From: a virus
Direction: 5' to 3' (one strand)
Virus record (IMG/VR): IMGVR_UViG_3300029477_000009
Length of the DNA stretch: 41,522 nt
The position numbers were made by a program, and so were the translations under genes. The notes beneath the pieces are model-generated. The model had not been told where the DNA came from. It made no database searches and saw only the letters and a program-made list of their open reading frames with translations. The stretch's first letter is position 1; each line of letters opens with the position of its first letter. This document shows positions 5,560 to 33,002 of this stretch, one piece after another.

Positions 5560-6653
5560 TGCCTGATACTTATATATCACAGTTTAGCGGCGAAGAAATT
5601 GACTCTGCGCTGAGAGCGGCGCAGATTATCTCCGGCGCGGATACGCCTGCTGAACTGCGAAAAAAGCTCGAAATTCGAGGCGATACCATTCCGGTCAGCG
5701 CGACAGACCCCACGCCTGTTTCCGAAGCACTGACAGCATCCGGCGGCGGTGTCAACCCCAATTTGCTTGACAACTGGTACTTCGGCAGACCCGTGAACCA
5801 GAGAGGGCAGACGGAATGGGCGTCCTCTGCGAGTGCCTATGTTCCGTGCGTAGACAGATGGAATTGGTGGGGGCAGTATGCAGCCGGTTCAACCCTGAAA
5901 CTTCTGGATGATGGACTGCAACTTATCGGGGAACCTAACGTAGCAGGACTTTATCAGCATATCTCACAGAAGATTGAAAAGGATAGGTTGCCTATAGGAG
6001 CAGCCGTTACACTATCTGCTCTTGTCAAGTCGGAGTCTGATGCCTCAATTATTCTTAGTATAGACGGCAAAAACTATACGACTGTAGCAGTTCAAGCGAA
6101 TGTCTGGGAGTTAATTACTTACACGCTCAATGCTCCAAGTGTCGAGCAGACTTATGACATAAGTATTCAGCGGAATACAGCTGGCACAACTTTTACTGTT
6201 AAAGCCGCCAAGCTCGAACTCGGCGACACGCAGACCCTTGCGCACAAAGAGGGCGACAAGTGGGTGCTGAATGAAATTCCGGATTTTGGGGAGCAGCTGA
6301 GGAGATGCACGTACTATGCAGAGAAGGTTGAGAGTAAAGATACACCCGCAATCACAAACTCTACGTTTGTTCCTTCCGGTGCTACAAGTGCAGTATTCAT
6401 TCTCCCTTATGCAAGGAAACGTACAGTACCAGCAATCAATTTTAACGATGTAAGTAACTATCGAATTATCGCACGAACTATTTCTGGTGGAACTACTGCA
6501 TTTTCTGTAACAGCTATATCACTTTTAGACATTGGTAGAACAAAAGCAGCTATTCTCGTGTCTTTTAACACAACTGATCAAGGCTATTACTGTTTCTTGC
6601 AGCGTTCTGATAACGCAGCCGCCGGGTATGCCTTTATTTCCGCCGACCTTTAA
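5559..6653 (+). CDS. Tail fibre / receptor-binding protein
   Basis: 364 aa with an ATGA overlap onto the previous gene. It has the NLLDNWYFGRPVNQRG and KLELGDT motifs typical of Firmicutes phage fibres, and its C-terminal half is AT-richer. Confidence 0.6.
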   Translation: MPDTYISQFSGEEIDSALRAAQIISGADTPAELRKKLEIRGDTIPVSATDPTPVSEALTASGGGVNPNLLDNWYFGRPVNQRGQTEWASSASAYVPCVDRWNWWGQYAAGSTLKLLDDGLQLIGEPNVAGLYQHISQKIEKDRLPIGAAVTLSALVKSESDASIILSIDGKNYTTVAVQANVWELITYTLNAPSVEQTYDISIQRNTAGTTFTVKAAKLELGDTQTLAHKEGDKWVLNEIPDFGEQLRRCTYYAEKVESKDTPAITNSTFVPSGATSAVFILPYARKRTVPAINFNDVSNYRIIARTISGGTTAFSVTAISLLDIGRTKAAILVSFNTTDQGYYCFLQRSDNAAAGYAFISADL

Positions 6654-12234: not shown

Positions 12235-13317
12235 TTATATATGCACCACCTTGCGAGTCTCCTGCGCCTCATAGAAATTCGAAACGCGGGCGGCGGCAGA
12301 GGCGAAAGCCTCGTTGGATAGGTGTGTATAAATATGCGAGGTCATAGCGATGTTTTTGTGACCTAACAGATCTTTGGCGACGTTGATGGGCACGCCCGCC
12401 GACTGTAAGTCGGTGGCGTAAGTATGTCGCAGACAGTAGGGCGTTAGGTCATCGGCGACGACTGACGTTTCCGGGATAATCGCGCCACGGAACGTCCGCG
12501 CTCCCATGTCAATATCAACCCTTTTCTTGAAGTTGCACCACATTTGCCGCATAGAGGTTTTTGTGTGCGGCTTGCCGGTGGTCGGCTGGGTGAATATATA
12601 ACCTGTACCGCCGGTCAGCAGGGGGCGCAAAGCCGGATGCAGGGGAACGGCTCTGTCTCCGTAGTCCGTCTTGGATGAGTGCAGGATTATCTTTTCTTCG
12701 TTTAAGCGAACATCTGCCCACAGAGCTTTTCGCGTTTCGTCCGGTCTTGCACCGGTGTACAACATGAACAGCACCCATAGCCCGGCGCGGTGCGTTTCCG
12801 CAACATGCAGGATATGCCTGCGCTCGTCGGCCGTGATTGCCCTGTGCGTGCCGCTTGTGGTCTCCGGCATAACGATACCCTCGGTAGGGTCATAGGCAAT
12901 CACGCGGTCGATACGCGCCTGTCTGAACGCGCTGCGGATGAGGTTGCGCAGCTTGCACGCCAGAGACGCGGAACGGCCGGATACGCTGTTAAGAATGTGC
13001 TGTAAGTCAATCGGTTTTACGTCTTTGAGCCGGAACGAGCCGATGGGCGGAGAAATGTAGTTTTTTACGTAGCTTTGCAGGTCAGCATAGGTGTTCGGCT
13101 GCACCTTCGGGAGCTTGTAGGCGGCGAGATAGTCCGCAAACCACTTGTCTACTGTGGTGTTCTCGTTGGTGATGTCGATGCCGTGTTCCAGGCGGCGTTT
13201 CTTTTCATCCACTTTACGCCAGAGAGCTCGCTCGGTTTTGGCGCGGACGGAATAACGCTTGCCCTGAAAAGTGAATGTCTCGCGGAAATATCCGTCTGAT
13301 GTGTTCGCTTTTCTCAT
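12235..13317 (-). CDS. int: Tyrosine integrase
   Basis: 360 aa with a C-terminal catalytic pattern: TGARPDE (R), LRHTYATDL (HxxR), LLGH and IYTH (Y). Confidence 0.95.
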   Translation of the reverse strand: MRKANTSDGYFRETFTFQGKRYSVRAKTERALWRKVDEKKRRLEHGIDITNENTTVDKWFADYLAAYKLPKVQPNTYADLQSYVKNYISPPIGSFRLKDVKPIDLQHILNSVSGRSASLACKLRNLIRSAFRQARIDRVIAYDPTEGIVMPETTSGTHRAITADERRHILHVAETHRAGLWVLFMLYTGARPDETRKALWADVRLNEEKIILHSSKTDYGDRAVPLHPALRPLLTGGTGYIFTQPTTGKPHTKTSMRQMWCNFKKRVDIDMGARTFRGAIIPETSVVADDLTPYCLRHTYATDLQSAGVPINVAKDLLGHKNIAMTSHIYTHLSNEAFASAAARVSNFYEAQETRKVVHI

Positions 13318-30326: not shown

Positions 30327-30736
30327 CAGCGAAAGAATGGCTAATGCGCGGGCGCGCACTGGAAAAGACGATTACAGCCTTGCAGGAGGCGCGGAAACGC
30401 GCCTATGCACGGGCAACGGGCGCAACCGCGCCGGTAAGGGACACGCCGGGCGGAAAAGGGAGCACGGGGAACAAGGCAGACCCCTACATCGAACTGGGCG
30501 AGAAGATCGCAGAGAAGGAAAACGAGCTTGCGGAGATATACGGCGAGATTGTGCGCGTGCTGGGCGAAATGCGGGATAATGAGCTGCAAACGCTCCTGCT
30601 TGAACGTTACGTGAACGGCGCAACATGGGCACAGGCGGCGCGGCGGCTGCATTACAGCGAGGCGCACGTGAAGGGCTACATGCACAGAATGGCACTGAAT
30701 GCTGTGGATAAGTTAATACCCCACAATACGCAATAA
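30323..30736 (+). CDS. Sigma-like late gene activator (DUF1492/ArpU/RinA-type)
   Basis: Starts at the internal ATG MTAKEWLMRG. ELQTLLLERYVNGATWAQAARRLHYSEAHVKGYMHRMAL is a sigma r4-like HTH. It is the last gene before the packaging region. Confidence 0.65.
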   Translation: MTAKEWLMRGRALEKTITALQEARKRAYARATGATAPVRDTPGGKGSTGNKADPYIELGEKIAEKENELAEIYGEIVRVLGEMRDNELQTLLLERYVNGATWAQAARRLHYSEAHVKGYMHRMALNAVDKLIPHNTQ

Positions 30737-31468
30737 TGTGATATACTGATATCGTGGAAGAGCTCCAAGGGAGCAAAACCACGGCATTCACGGGTTGATA
30801 AATTCCGGTTTTATGTCCTCCTAATTCTCTCCCCTGCTTCGGCGGGGACACGCTCCAAAGGCTGCACGAGGCCGGCGGGGCTCACACTTCCTTTCGCCCA
30901 AGGCATTCCCTAATGAGGCGGGAAACCGTCTCAGCCTGTCCGCCGCGTCCGCACGAGGGCGCGCGGGCTCTTTGACTCTCGGGAATACAGTTCAAGGAAA
31001 CGCGGCAGAGATGCCGCACATGCTCCAAAGCCTGCATGAGGGCGGCGGGGCAAAAAAAGACAGCCGGACAGGCTGCCCATAATCTGACGGCGTGGAAAGA
31101 CACGCAACGGCGCAGCTTACGGAACGGCTGCCTCCTATTCTGACAGCCCGGAAAGACGGACACCAGCAAGGCAAGGCTATGCTTGACAGCCCGGAAAGAC
31201 GGGCAGTTTCCGAACTCCTGCCGGGGCTGCTGCAACAGCTCGGCGGGCGCGGTACGCTTGCAGGCGATGCCGCCGGGGTCGCGCCCCGCTGTAACCAGTC
31301 AGCCGGAAAACAAACCGATAGTAATTGTGACACGCCGGAGAGCGACGGCGCACAGCCCAGAACGAGAGGGCGGCGGATGCACGCCAACGGATCGCGAGAG
31401 CCGAAAAGCTGCATACATGCGGATAAAAAACAAGATCAACAAAAGAGAGGTGAAACACTCCTTCTCTT
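30737..31468 (+). ncRNA. Candidate large structured ncRNA (ORF-free, hairpin-dense tract)
   Basis: No ORF here has an RBS. The tract contains duplicated hairpin modules at 30831-80 and 31002-50, UUCG/GAGA tetraloops on the + strand, and three GAAAGA-loop hairpins with compensatory changes. Confidence 0.45.
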
Positions 31469-31478
31469 ATACATTCCG

Positions 31479-31487
31479 TGGTATATT
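31479..31487 (+). promoter_or_regulatory. Extended -10 promoter TGgTATATT
   Basis: TG-n-TATATT at 31479-87. The -35 region is poor. Confidence 0.4.
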
Positions 31488-31493
31488 GTCTTA

Positions 31494-31690
31494 TTTTGTA
31501 GCATGCCCGCATGAAAGAAGCTGGGAGACCATCGGTGAAAGCCCGACGTTCGCGCGGCGACAAGCGCACATACCCCGAAAGGGGTATACATGCAGCCGAA
31601 AGTTGATACGCGGTGCAATCCCGCGTGGCTGCACCTCCAATTGTCATAAGTAAAAGCACCTCCCCGGGATGGCTTCGGGAAGGTGCTTTT
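31494..31690 (+). ncRNA. Candidate ~200-nt structured RNA ending at a strong terminator
   Basis: ATACCCC-GAAA-GGGGTAT at 31570-87. Nested GCAGCC..CGCGG-tgcaatc-CCGCG..GGCTGC at 31592-632. Terminator at 31652-90. Confidence 0.45.
31652..31690. terminator. Bidirectional rho-independent terminator
   Basis: AAAAGCACCTCCCCG-ggatggctt-CGGGAAGGTGCTTTT. It has an A-run upstream and a T-run downstream, and lies between the + RNA and the - gene 31715-31876. Confidence 0.8.
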
Positions 31691-31719
31691 GCTTAGATGT
31701 TGCTTAGATGTTGCTTAGC
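31690..31719. repeat. 11-bp tandem repeat TGCTTAGATGT x2.7
   Basis: tgcttagatgt tgcttagatgt tgcttagc. It contains the stop codon of the minus-strand gene. Confidence 0.85.
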
Positions 31720-31876
31720 GGTTATCATAAGCGCATAGAGCCTCGCACAGCTCGCGCGTCGGGCACTGAGAGCAGTCGCACTCCGAAATGATAACGTTTT
31801 CGCACAGTGCGCGAGGATCGGCCATAAAAACGGCCTCGGCTGCTCGGTAGTCCTCAGGGGTAATGATGTTATACAT
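31715..31876 (-). CDS. Small Cys-rich protein (53 aa), the only minus-strand gene in the late half
   Basis: RBS ggaggcgtaaccc lies before the ATG. MYNIITPEDYRAAEAVFMADPRALCENVIISECDCSQCPTRELCEALCAYDNR. Confidence 0.5.
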   Translation of the reverse strand: MYNIITPEDYRAAEAVFMADPRALCENVIISECDCSQCPTRELCEALCAYDNR

Positions 31877-32100
31877 GGGTTACGCCTCCAGCCGGTAGAA
31901 CATCGCGCCGTTAAGCAGTGCGAAAGTGATGCAAGCGGTGTTCGCCTGCCGGTAGACTATAAGCTGTTCGGCAGAACGTTCGATGGTATTGATTATCGGT
32001 TCTTGAAGCCGATCAAGGAGAATTTCCCGAGGGATTACGAAAAGATCATCACATGGTTCCCGCTGGCGGAACTGGAGTTATTCAGGAGGGGTGAGCTGTA

Positions 32101-32184
32101 ATGGGATATTGGAACGACAACGAAGTTAAGGAAACAAAAGATGATCACATTGAATTAGAGCAGCTCGAAAGCGAGCCTCGATGA
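32101..32184 (+). CDS. 27-aa ORF, probably the 5' part of 32219-32470
   Basis: RBS caggagggg. MGYWNDNEVKETKDDHIELEQLESEPR. The next frame continues ..LDELGDVEKSFRERMGAENK. Confidence 0.35.
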   Translation: MGYWNDNEVKETKDDHIELEQLESEPR

Positions 32185-32218
32185 GCTGGGAGATGTAGAA
32201 AAGAGTTTCCGTGAGCGC

Positions 32219-32470
32219 ATGGGCGCTGAGAATAAGCGATTTAAGGATATGTGCGACACCGAATATTGGTGCTGCATCTGCTTCACCAGCCGTGCGCAGA
32301 AGGAGGAATTTTTGGAGTCTCTGGAGTTTGACGGCGATTTGAAGTATATCGAAGGAAAAGAATTCGCGCGAGCGGTGAAAAGACCGGTTAAAACCGAGGA
32401 TTTGCGGTTTGCGCGTATCGGCAAAGGCTCAAAAGAATACTTGGGCAGGCTCATAGATGAGCAAAAATGA
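32219..32470 (+). CDS. Hypothetical protein upstream of the terminase
   Basis: 83 aa containing DTEYWCCICFTSRAQKEEFLESL. There is no SD before its ATG, and the frame is open upstream to 32156. Confidence 0.5.
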   Translation: MGAENKRFKDMCDTEYWCCICFTSRAQKEEFLESLEFDGDLKYIEGKEFARAVKRPVKTEDLRFARIGKGSKEYLGRLIDEQK

Positions 32471-32489
32471 CGGAGAGGAGGTGTAAAGC

Positions 32490-32612
32490 GTGGGTGCTGG
32501 TTATGGTAGCGGCAGGCTTGCCAATTTCGGCAGAACCAGAAATCGCCGCCGCAGTGTTGCGGTAGGCCGTCGCGCTGCTGGCGCTCGTGGCGCTCGTTCG
32601 CCCTCGACCTAA
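32490..32612 (+). CDS. Possible 40-aa Arg-rich basic peptide
   Basis: A GTG 8 nt after GGAGAGGAGG. GAGYGSGRLANFGRTRNRRRSVAVGRRAAGARGARSPST. Confidence 0.3.
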   Translation: MGAGYGSGRLANFGRTRNRRRSVAVGRRAAGARGARSPST

Positions 32613-32690
32613 ACACCAAAACTCAAAAGTCCAACGGTTGGGAAATGATTCTCAGCCGGTTTTCTTTTGGGGAAAGAAAGGAGGTAGCGC

Positions 32691-33002
32691 ATGGGACGGA
32701 AAAAGAAAGTGATTGACCTCAAAGCGGTGCAAGAGCTTGCAAGTGAGGGCAATACACAAGAAGAAATTGCAAAGGCTTTGGACTTTTCACGATCGACGTT
32801 CAGTAACCGCGACGATGTAACCGAAGCATACTATAAGGGCGTAGCAGAAATGAAGCTCAGCTTGCGCCATTGGCAGTTTAACGCTGCTCGTGGCGGTAAC
32901 ATCCAGATGCTTATCTGGTTGGGCAAGCAGTACCTCGGACAGCGTGACACAGTAGAGAAAAAAATCGAAAGCGAAGGCGTGAAGGTGATTATCGATGTCT
33001 GA
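32691..33002 (+). CDS. terS: Terminase small subunit
   Basis: RBS aaaggagg. The N-terminal HTH is NTQEEIAKALDFSRSTF, followed by IWLGKQYLGQRD. It lies directly before terL. Confidence 0.75.
   Translation: MGRKKKVIDLKAVQELASEGNTQEEIAKALDFSRSTFSNRDDVTEAYYKGVAEMKLSLRHWQFNAARGGNIQMLIWLGKQYLGQRDTVEKKIESEGVKVIIDV

Follow-up and report, generated by a model that had tools for sequence, protein, structure and literature searches.

Short hairpins with a fixed loop and a freely varying stem are the means by which phages address the machines of their hosts, boxB and the coat-protein operators being the classical examples. The boxB loops of phages lambda and P22 read GAAAA, GAAGA and GACAA. Among tandem hairpins, those of guanidine-II RNAs carry ACGR tetraloops, and in the ANTAR targets two adjacent hexaloop hairpins have A as the first and G as the fourth loop base, with a terminator overlapping the second hairpin. 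A hairpin that ends in a tail of few bases is attacked poorly by 3' exonucleases. When stable stem-loops occupy the proximal 5' leader, bacterial RNase P is slowed about 10-fold and polycistronic precursors are cleaved in an imposed order (PMC10731613). The present work deals with a short hairpin that occurs three times in a viral DNA of 41,522 nucleotides (nt), IMG/VR record IMGVR_UViG_3300029477_000009, which comes from a gut Clostridia phage and which at its full length is called the window throughout. The hairpin has a UGACR flank, a stem of five base pairs (bp) and a GAAAGA hexaloop, and its copies lie in the variable middle of a predicted large structured RNA, here termed the carrier RNA. 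An earlier reading of the same DNA, the original prediction, had proposed selection for a hairpin shape with a sequence-specific loop and, as possible roles, recognition of the repeats by an antiterminator, a packaging or coat-like binder or a nuclease, or loop-loop multimerisation within a larger RNA. The selected shape and loop and the larger RNA stood; multimerisation is unlikely to be general, and a phage-specific protein partner is not indicated. The degenerate fourth unit, the wide spread of the module, its position before tRNA genes and the ~950-nt carrier RNA go beyond that prediction.

A covarying hairpin read on one strand

The three hairpins of the window (Table 1) are copies of an autonomous, portable RNA module that is read on the + strand. 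As a reading of the sequence the original prediction was correct in every detail, from the number and coordinates of the units to the TGAC(G/A) flank and the mismatch in unit 2. The pattern TGACR-N5-GAAAGA has three matches on the two strands of the 41.5-kb window, all of them at these sites, against a mean of 0.13 in 100 dinucleotide-preserving shuffles, none of which reached three. A relaxed search of the window added a degenerate fourth unit, which has a counterpart, gcgacaCGACGgagagaTGACG, in the relative L169; GGANAGAC within a UGACR hairpin had no further occurrence in the window in that search. Spacing between units is variable (43, 56 and 60 nt), and in the minimum free energy (MFE) and centroid structures of a 953-nt segment all three hairpins form.

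Relatives were retrieved via the gene of a regulator encoded upstream of the hairpins and via DNA patterns. The compensatory stem changes that had been noticed between copies 1 and 3 are real and continue in these relatives, whose stems include GCTCG/CGAGC, GCCCG/CGGGC, GCGTG/CACGC, GTGTG/CACAC and GTGCG/CGTAC, together with G·U intermediates. Covariation was scored on the distinct units that match TGRYR-N4G-GA(A/G/C)AGA-CN4 in motif-bearing loci, complementarity not being demanded. This set of 95 units contains 54 different stems. Pairing was found in 91.8% of the stem cells, as compared with 63.4% when the 3' partners were shuffled and at most 38.7% when the partners were slid; doubly changed cells numbered 113 where 29.5 were expected, and such values were attained in 0 of 500 shuffles. 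At the three inner variable pairs G·U occurred 28 times and A·C 8 times, and therefore the structure forms on the + strand as written.

The module consensus is YUGACR, four free base pairs, a closing G-C pair, a GA(A/G/C)AGA hexaloop and usually an A after the stem, where the invariance of the closing pair and of loop positions 1, 2, 4, 5 and 6 is imposed by the collecting pattern. Loop position 3 is A in nearly every unit, G or C taking its place in some. The flank was assessed on 30 extra copies found via the hairpin and loop alone: the bases U-G-A-C-A are kept in 25, 29, 26, 29 and 27 of them, and an A follows the stem in 21. The covariation and the retention of the flank in these extra copies support selection on the hairpin shape as well as on a sequence-specific loop and 5' flank.

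The copy number changes even among close relatives. BLAST homology to most of them stops exactly at the 3' end of unit 2 (query 1-423). Unit 3 is an extra copy present only in the window, L123 and L361, and the remaining window-type relatives have two units about 60 nt apart. In L363 an equivalent unit (GCGTG/CACGC) stands ahead of the sequence that in the window follows unit 3. Such freely varying copy number is as expected for an accessory module.

Distribution of the module

Scans that did not require complementarity gave more than 200 viral and metagenomic loci with the module, and their stems are nearly all perfect. The single-unit scan of IMG/VR yielded at least 120 loci, with a perfect 5-bp stem in 121 of the 126 matches listed, where about 3.5% would be expected by chance. 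Among the 120 IMG/VR copies listed, 87 are intergenic, and listed copies lie mostly on the strand of the neighbouring genes (59 to 15 for the downstream gene, 55 to 17 for the upstream one). Two or more copies occur in only 15 of the 120 IMG/VR loci listed, the others having a single module in unrelated intergenic regions. A scan of metagenomes for two units 24-50 nt apart, with stems left free, added at least 80 loci; both stems had at least four of five pairs in 71 of the 79 double matches listed. These listed loci fall into about 20 unrelated sequence clusters, one of which alone is the family of the window. The samples originate from gut, rumen, marine and saline environments.

Two loci bring the module into well-known phage territory. 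An Escherichia coli lambdoid prophage (L403, NZ_CM180093) and the cultured Stenotrophomonas phage vB_SmeS_BUCT709 (L406) both have a PL-type promoter downstream of a cI-like gene, followed by two units and an intrinsic terminator, and further copies of the octamer GGAAAGAC, which in the window spans the hairpin loop, stand ahead of the early-left genes. In all, their early-left leaders of about 1 kb (L403 4040-4760, L406 1540-2660) contain 6-7 octamers, three in canonical hairpins and the remaining ones unpaired, as GAGGAAAGACCAAUG, resembling ribosome-binding sites of small genes. In lambda the motif does not occur. A third context is a genuine transfer-messenger RNA (tmRNA) at 432-794 of L358 (129.8 bits, tag AKVITFPGAKAPVALAA), in which three tandem UGRCA/GAAAGA units with a period of 21-22 nt replace the pseudoknots.

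Arrays of 3-6 units also exist (L329, L323, L347, L014). The array of L014 (4125-4512), on a 322-kb IMG/VR contig of a jumbo phage, has five units; near-identical repeats, which end at a terminator, place the last four at intervals of 78 nt, and tRNA genes are absent from the locus. Six units in L329 (4095-4457) and three in L400, spaced by 55-66 nt, directly follow a gene of a GerE/LuxR-family regulator; past each unit come ACCCCAUA and a small hairpin that differs from unit to unit, and the stem of one unit is doubly compensated.

In the window and in 26 related or motif-bearing loci, 18 and a further 4 motif-bearing ones among them, none of the 4227 models of Rfam 15 matched the hairpins or the carrier RNA, and no literature was found on the UGACR/GAAAGA motif or on a phage tRNA-leader hairpin. 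No protein family was found to recur among the genes beside the motif; a phage-specific antiterminator, coat protein or nuclease as its partner is not indicated. The distance to start codons is not fixed, and terminators are weakly enriched nearby (20% and 14%, control positions giving 13% and 9%). The hairpin is a common phage RNA module, apparently unannotated, and its occurrence in E. coli prophages, a Stenotrophomonas phage, Clostridia phages and marine or saline contigs points to a conserved host factor.

Several known elements were considered and rejected. The consensus core bases or the geometry do not fit the hammerhead, the hairpin ribozyme, k-turns or k-loops, CsrA sites or REP elements. 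A selenocysteine insertion sequence (SECIS) or stop-codon read-through signal, in which UGA-C would precede a hairpin, is excluded by the 22-nt tandem period, which does not maintain a reading frame. The bases past the stem are not a -10 element, as a sigma-70 promoter with the hairpin as spacer would need. An attenuator or translational operator was rejected on the lack of a strong terminator association and of a fixed start-codon distance, and a CRISPR array or solitary repeat on the compensatory differences between neighbouring stems and on the variable spacing of the units.

Hairpins upstream of tRNA genes

ARAGORN was run on 288 loci, namely the motif-bearing loci and the relatives sharing the regulator gene, which amount to 2.35 Mb and contain 113 tRNAs, 108 of them distinct. 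In 19 of the 108 distinct tRNAs the 5' end lies 3-12 nt (mode 4-6) downstream of the end of a UGACR/GAAAGA hairpin on the same strand. With 113 tRNAs in 2.35 Mb, fewer than one such juxtaposition is estimated to arise by chance. The linker between hairpin and tRNA is AU-rich, and the tRNAs are of many identities, some being the first of long arrays (as in L041). The arrangement is found in the IMG/VR loci L006, L011, L012, L020, L032, L037, L041, L042, L047, L049, L081, L082, L084, L085, L088, L093, L096 and L099. This geometry suggests a role in processing, or as a punctuation that protects 3' ends.

The carrier RNA

The window hairpins sit in a stretch that is poor in open reading frames (ORFs) and rich in GC (0.60-0.67, about 0.50 around it). 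On one side lies a gene with weak sigma-70 region 4 similarity (PHROG "transcriptional regulator"), the late-regulator gene, and on the other small ORFs, terS and terL, the repeats being about 1.5 kb upstream of terS/terL. In 20 IMG/VR relatives, with a regulator protein 95-98% identical, indels of 1-2 nt and many paired substitutions are found across the stretch. The indels disrupt the overlapping ORFs of 30740-31700 in relatives 97-99% identical, which rules out that this interval is protein-coding. Examples of compensation are AUACCCC-GAAA-GGGGUAU versus AUACCGC-GCAA-GCGGUAU, and GAGGCGG...CCGUCUC versus GAGACGG or ...CCGCCUC. The region is therefore not coding but structured. The 953-nt segment has an MFE of -397 kcal/mol, as compared with -349 ± 7.6 for shuffles (z-score -6.25). 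We read the carrier as an untranslated, highly structured phage RNA of about 950 nt (~30750-31695). That the hairpins are part of a larger RNA, as had been anticipated, is supported by the alignment of relatives, the fold and the compensatory helices.

Comparison of the relatives indicates a family of such RNAs, of 190-980 nt, in phages and prophages of Clostridia. Its core comprises an extended -10 element, the hairpin P1, a CU-rich linker bearing CCUCC, a small hairpin, a hairpin with a CUGCAYGAGG loop and a 3' AUACC...GGUAU hairpin. Minimal members are those of L191 (Butyricicoccus; ~190 nt, with the terminator directly before terS) and L142 (Intestinibacillus massiliensis; ~270 nt), and no GAAAGA unit is present in the minimal members L142, L162 and L191. 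The larger members (the window type, L169 from a Coprococcus eutactus metagenome-assembled genome, L146, L166, L363 and L371) have 1-3 units in the inserted variable middle. The RNA region had no BLASTN match among 50,697 phage records, and Rfam gave none at gathering thresholds in the whole window and chance-level matches only at E-values up to 10 in 30500-32800. Only chance matches came from a scan with the 5' beginning of the minimal RNAs. In L146 a GP20-b RNA motif (5711-5771, 60.5 bits) lies in the structural gene region.

Table 1. Hairpin units and other features of the carrier RNA, in positions of the window
Feature	Position	Strand	Description
Extended -10-like element	30739..30747	+	TGATATACT; directly after the late-regulator stop; presumed RNA start, probable transcription start site near 30750-30755
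P1, two-tier 5' hairpin	30753..30783	+	CGTGG-aaga-GCTCC-aag-GGAGC-aaaa-CCACG; in the MFE fold
CU-rich single-stranded linker	30815..30830	+	GUCCUCCUAAUUCUCU, contains CCUCCU; pyrimidine CCUCC linker in all family members
Hairpin 2	30832..30847	+	CCCUGC-UUCG-GCGGGG; alignment of relatives and MFE fold
GCAYGAGG hairpin, copy 1	30852..30881	+	GCTCC-AAA-GGC-UGCACGAG-GCC-GGC-GGGGC; direct repeat family D4
GCAYGAGG hairpin, copy 2	31022..31051	+	Start of the variable central region; direct repeat family D4
H0, variable hairpin	31061..31075	+	CAGCC-GGACA-GGCTG, then conserved linker CCAUAAUC; indels among relatives fall in the loop
Hairpin unit 1	31084..31106	+	CTGACG-GCGTG-GAAAGA-CACGC-A; stem 31090-31094/31101-31105, loop 31095-31100; sequence, relatives and fold
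H2 hairpin	31112..31131	+	GCAGC-UUACGGAACG-GCUGC; begins 3-6 nt past unit 1
Hairpin unit 2	31140..31162	+	CTGACA-GCCCG-GAAAGA-CGGAC-A; stem 31146-31150/31157-31161, one C·A mismatch
Hairpin unit 3	31183..31205	+	TTGACA-GCCCG-GAAAGA-CGGGC-A; stem 31189-31193/31200-31204
Degenerate fourth unit	31328..31350	+	GTGACA-CGCCG-GAGAGCGA-CGGCG; relaxed search of the window
Conserved 3' hairpin	31570..31587	+	AUACCCC-GAAA-GGGGUAU; compensatory variants ACCGCG-CAAG-CGCGGU in relatives
tRNA-like minihelix	31591..31639	+	7-bp acceptor-like stem 31591-31597/31627-31633, 10-nt bulge, tail CCUCCA
Intrinsic terminator	31652..31695	+	20-nt arms 90% complementary, U-tract; inverted repeat I1; presumed RNA 3' end

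At the 5' end, TGnTAtnaT elements are found at the matching place in the distant relatives L142, L166, L191 and L169, and a consensus sigma-70 scan at the RNA start gave no -35/-10 pair. The architecture of P1 is kept in L142 and L166 with wholly different stems (TTGAG-caaa-GCCCC-gaa-GGGGT-gaa-CTCAA), and the position of hairpin 2 is occupied in L142 by another stem, ACCGCCC-ttcg-GGGCGG. The linker reads CCUCCUUUCUA in L142 (2470-2490) and in L166, which we take to be the 3' end, the anti-Shine-Dalgarno region, of Firmicute 16S ribosomal RNA (rRNA); alternatively, a pseudoknot could form between the CCUCC and the GAGG in the GCAYGAGG loop. All family members share an unchanged CUGCAYGAGG, and the stems at its sides covary: the inner stem GGC/GCC of copy 1 is GCC/GGC in copy 2, and the outer stem of copy 2 varies as GCUCC/GGGGC, GCUCGC/GUGAGC and GCUCGC/GCGGGC. 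A conserved CCUUUC is located at 30890-30895.

Compensation extends to the helices that surround the units. The H0 stem is extended to CAGCCU/AGGCUG in L371, CAGCCG/CGGCUG in L345 and GACAGC/GCUGUC in L169. The H2 loop CUUACGGAACGG is invariant in 16 relatives, whereas in its stem the GCAGC/GCUGC of the window is replaced by GCGGC/GCCGC in L169. A second extended -10-like element, TGGTATATT, is located at 31479-31487 inside an insertion specific to the window, so that the 3' domain (hairpin, tRNA-like element and terminator) might also be transcribed alone.

The 3' end of the RNA resembles a tRNA. The minihelix found there (fold z-score -3.2), 3 nt past the conserved 3' hairpin, has an inner 6-bp stem with the 7-nt loop UGCAAUC (31608-31626), and this stem covaries among relatives (ACGCGG/CCGCGU versus ACACGG/CCGUGU). 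At the position of the minihelix, 3-4 nt past the family's 3' hairpin, L146 and L166 have tRNA-Met and tRNA-Arg, and in L133 ARAGORN called a permuted tmRNA piece there. The 3' hairpin of the family has a geometry matching that of the module, being placed before a tRNA (L146, L166) or before a tRNA-like end (the window). ARAGORN found neither tRNA nor tmRNA in the window, and the Rfam tRNA and tmRNA models did not match the minihelix at E-value 10; the sole sub-threshold Rfam match at this place was weak and antisense, and the same model also matched the antisense of the L166 tRNA. The element can be read, on its modelled fold, as an acceptor-stem plus T-arm minihelix, membership among tRNAs or tmRNAs not being established.

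The terminator is kept in all window-type relatives and is present in the MFE fold. From its U-tract onwards, three tandem 11-nt repeats, TTGCTTAGATG, occupy 31689-31721 and vary in number and sequence among relatives. Beyond it lies a 53-amino-acid ORF on the - strand (31715-31876), with a good GGAGG site and Cys-rich motifs. A second terminator-like hairpin (32635-32658) stands immediately upstream of terS, so that late transcription may need read-through.

Possible roles of the module

Our preferred reading, to which we assign a probability of roughly 0.4, is that the module may be a "punctuation" hairpin of long untranslated phage transcripts, involved in processing and in the protection of 3' ends. 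The module would fold locally in the untranslated transcript, and a factor common to very different bacteria would recognise its invariant loop and 5' flank, the best candidate for this factor being RNase P or the machinery of RNA processing and decay. The module would thus mark, insulate and protect the borders between structured RNA units, and govern the manner and timing of cleavage by RNase P or of other processing. Located before tRNAs, the hairpin should slow or order RNase P cleavage, and after cleavage the upstream RNA would keep a hairpin with a very short 3' tail, which exonucleases would attack poorly. In the window another helix begins within a few bases past each unit, for example H2 past unit 1; here the three copies may delimit or stabilise sub-domains, and their number could change harmlessly.

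A number of observations weigh against this proposal. The window has no tRNA, and its three hairpins precede ordinary helices rather than recognisable RNase P substrates; over 85% of all copies are not beside a detectable tRNA. Protection of 3' ends alone does not explain an invariant loop and UGACR flank. The copies of the E. coli prophage, in a PL-type leader before a terminator, fit antitermination at least equally well, and the three tandem copies that replace pseudoknots in one tmRNA fit a purely structural role. The examined loci were moreover chosen for carrying the motif, and the frequencies are conditional on that selection.

Antitermination is the first alternative to be weighed. The nascent hairpin would be a loading site of the nut/boxB kind, binding RNA polymerase, a NusA-like factor or a small antiterminator and making transcription processive on long untranslated or terminator-containing phage operons, resistant to Rho and to intrinsic terminators. 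The GC-rich 5-bp stem and purine-rich GA-N-AGA loop do resemble boxB of lambda and P22, except that the loop has six bases and not five and that no boxA adjoins the hairpins. The location is likewise suggestive, with two copies between a PL-type promoter and an intrinsic terminator and more before the early-left genes in L403 and BUCT709, terminator-like hairpins between the late regulator and terS in the window, and an untranslated context in every case (leaders, tRNA arrays, large non-coding RNA, tmRNA), where Rho would otherwise act. However, the enrichment in terminators is weak, the fixed distance of 3-12 nt to tRNAs is not needed for antitermination, and neither a gene for an arginine-rich-motif protein nor any common protein family recurs nearby. 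The hairpin is also unrelated in sequence to putL/putR of HK022, and lambda does not have it. On balance this explanation seems unlikely.

The module could, alternatively, be purely architectural, a compact and highly stable building block whose loop and flank make tertiary contacts (A-minor, receptor-like, or kissing with CUUUC) and which possibly multimerises. Large RNAs of phages give grounds for this idea: ROOL and GOLLD, likewise phage-borne and tRNA-adjacent, form homo-oligomers (PMC12286853), and the RNA of the window is large and ornate by its z-score. The conserved CCUUUC of the window could pair with the loop GAAAG, although this candidate partner is absent from the unrelated contexts of the module. 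Arrays of 3-6 units and the tmRNA whose pseudoknot region was replaced by three tandem units are what a building block would produce; most of the IMG/VR loci listed, however, have a single copy in a short intergenic region without any large RNA, and inside the carrier family copy number and position are not conserved, minimal members lacking the module. All-purine loops, finally, cannot kiss one another, and with two or more copies in so few of the listed IMG/VR loci, the loop-loop multimerisation of the original prediction is unlikely as a general role. A purely architectural function is accordingly a rather improbable one.

Mimicry of rRNA appears very improbable. Here a ribosome-targeting factor would be titrated by the hairpin, either through the display of GGAAAGAC as in a minimal Erm substrate or through action as a Shine-Dalgarno-like GGA sponge. 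In the minimal substrate of Erm, AAAGACC stands in a hairpin loop with G-C closing pairs (PMC12116650), and 23S rRNA 2054-2068 is ACGGAAAGACCCCGU (PMC12887398). The octamers at 31094-31101, 31150-31157 and 31193-31200 are identical to 23S rRNA 2056-2063, which includes the macrolide/Erm site A2058, and they share the hairpin form of the minimal substrate; the identity of eight bases could be a coincidence, and neither the 5' flank nor the stem matches helix 73. Members of the carrier family also have CCUCCUUUCUA, presumably matching 16S rRNA, and in phages of the E. coli type GGAAAGACC doubles as a sequence like a ribosome-binding site. Nothing ties the motif to resistance or toxin genes, and it further counts against mimicry that we know of no widespread enzyme acting on A2058 in hosts without erm genes.

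A site at the level of DNA (a terminase pac/cos site or regulator repeats) or a coincidental repeat scarcely deserves credence: three direct repeats do lie about 1.5 kb upstream of terS/terL and the CTGACA/TTGACA flank resembles a -35 hexamer, but a double-stranded site does not require free stem covariation with a fixed loop, the preference for G·U over A·C is strand-specific, no -10 follows the stem and A is found at the key position in 2 of 30 copies, many contexts of the module are unrelated to packaging, and coincidence is excluded by the shuffles and by the statistics of perfect stems.

Taken as punctuation, the module offers in its position before tRNAs a testable link to RNase P processing and to the protection of RNA ends, and given this geometry RNase P-linked processing is the first thing to test. 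A common module that nevertheless has no Rfam family and was not found in the literature could also serve as a handle in searches for new non-coding RNAs of phages. The carrier RNA would add a family, from Clostridia phages of the human gut, to the very small set of large structured phage RNAs, and its tRNA-like end gives a hint as to the formation of 3' ends in such RNAs. A bolder proposal, which we consider doubtful, joins both parts: the hairpin would be a universal, unrecognised 22-nt signal by which phages from many phyla bring a core host machine to untranslated RNA or steer it there, and the carrier RNA a new class of large, ornate phage RNA. If so, the candidate machines would be RNase P and exonucleases, for punctuation, or RNA polymerase, for antitermination by RNA alone, and the carrier RNA would be comparable to GOLLD and ROOL, ending in a tRNA-like handle.

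Comparison with known systems

The module shares with boxB of lambda and P22 a short, GC-rich 5-bp stem of free sequence and a fixed purine-rich loop starting with GA, as well as the location in untranslated leaders of phage operons, where an E. coli prophage has it between a PL-type promoter and a terminator. It differs in having a GA(N)AGA hexaloop instead of a GNRA-like pentaloop, the length of six bases in all 95 units being imposed by the pattern. As compared with lambda nut, the flank is UGACR in place of an upstream boxA (CGCUCUUA-like) and no N-like gene is nearby; the module is often multiple, often 3-12 nt before tRNAs, and extends far beyond the lambdoid phages while being absent from lambda itself. 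No boxA was found a few bases upstream of the window hairpins; the one boxA-like string in the window, GCUCUUUGA at 30967-30975, lies about 110 nt upstream of the first unit and varies in L137 and L125. The put sites of HK022 are also cis-acting structured RNAs just past early lambdoid promoters, the same position as that of the hairpins in L403. Nevertheless, put comprises about 70 nt folded into two long, irregular stem-loops, as opposed to a 22-nt module, and the putL and putR regions contain no UGACR-GAAAGA unit and no similarity to it in sequence or shape.

Stem-loops in the valV-valW leader of E. coli provide a parallel for the copies next to tRNAs, since there too a stable hairpin lies a few nt upstream of a tRNA, as the module does in 19 phage tRNAs. 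Those known stem-loops have no conserved loop or flank, whereas the module is sequence-specific, crosses phyla and is mostly found away from tRNAs. With the guanidine-II (mini-ykkC) RNAs and the ANTAR targets the module has in common short tandem hairpins with covarying stems, invariant loop bases and closing pair, variable linkers and a location in 5' leaders. Those are, however, pairs beside an expression platform, while the module is mostly single and does not consistently overlap terminators or start codons. That it belongs to the ANTAR targets is unlikely: its loop reads G1 A2 A3 A4 G5 A6, and the overlap with a terminator is not consistent.

The motif DUF3800-VIII (RF03075), published without a function (PMC5737381), is found inside the L166 relative of the carrier, at 12527-12592 on the - strand (48.6 bits, gathering threshold 40.2), just upstream of a second GCAYGAGG hairpin. 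It is absent from the window and is a separate 64-nt structure without a GAAAGA hairpin. Therefore a published orphan motif is, at least in L166, part of a larger RNA.

The closest likeness of the carrier RNA is to GOLLD and ROOL (RF01998, RF03087). Like them it is an untranslated RNA of several hundred to about 1000 nt with many GNRA-capped helices, and it belongs to phages or prophages of Firmicutes, often beside tRNA genes (PMC5737381). The general trait of these RNAs, large structured phage transcripts often adjacent to tRNAs, is thus found in the carrier RNA, as judged by its z-score, its phage neighbours and the tRNAs of L146 and L166. The GOLLD and ROOL covariance models did not match the window or four relatives, even at an E-value of 10. 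The carrier RNA is distinguished by a core of its own, composed of P1, the CCUCC linker and the GCAYGAGG hairpin, by a length that ranges from 190 to 980 nt via modular insertions, and by a fixed position, after the late-regulator gene and before the packaging genes.

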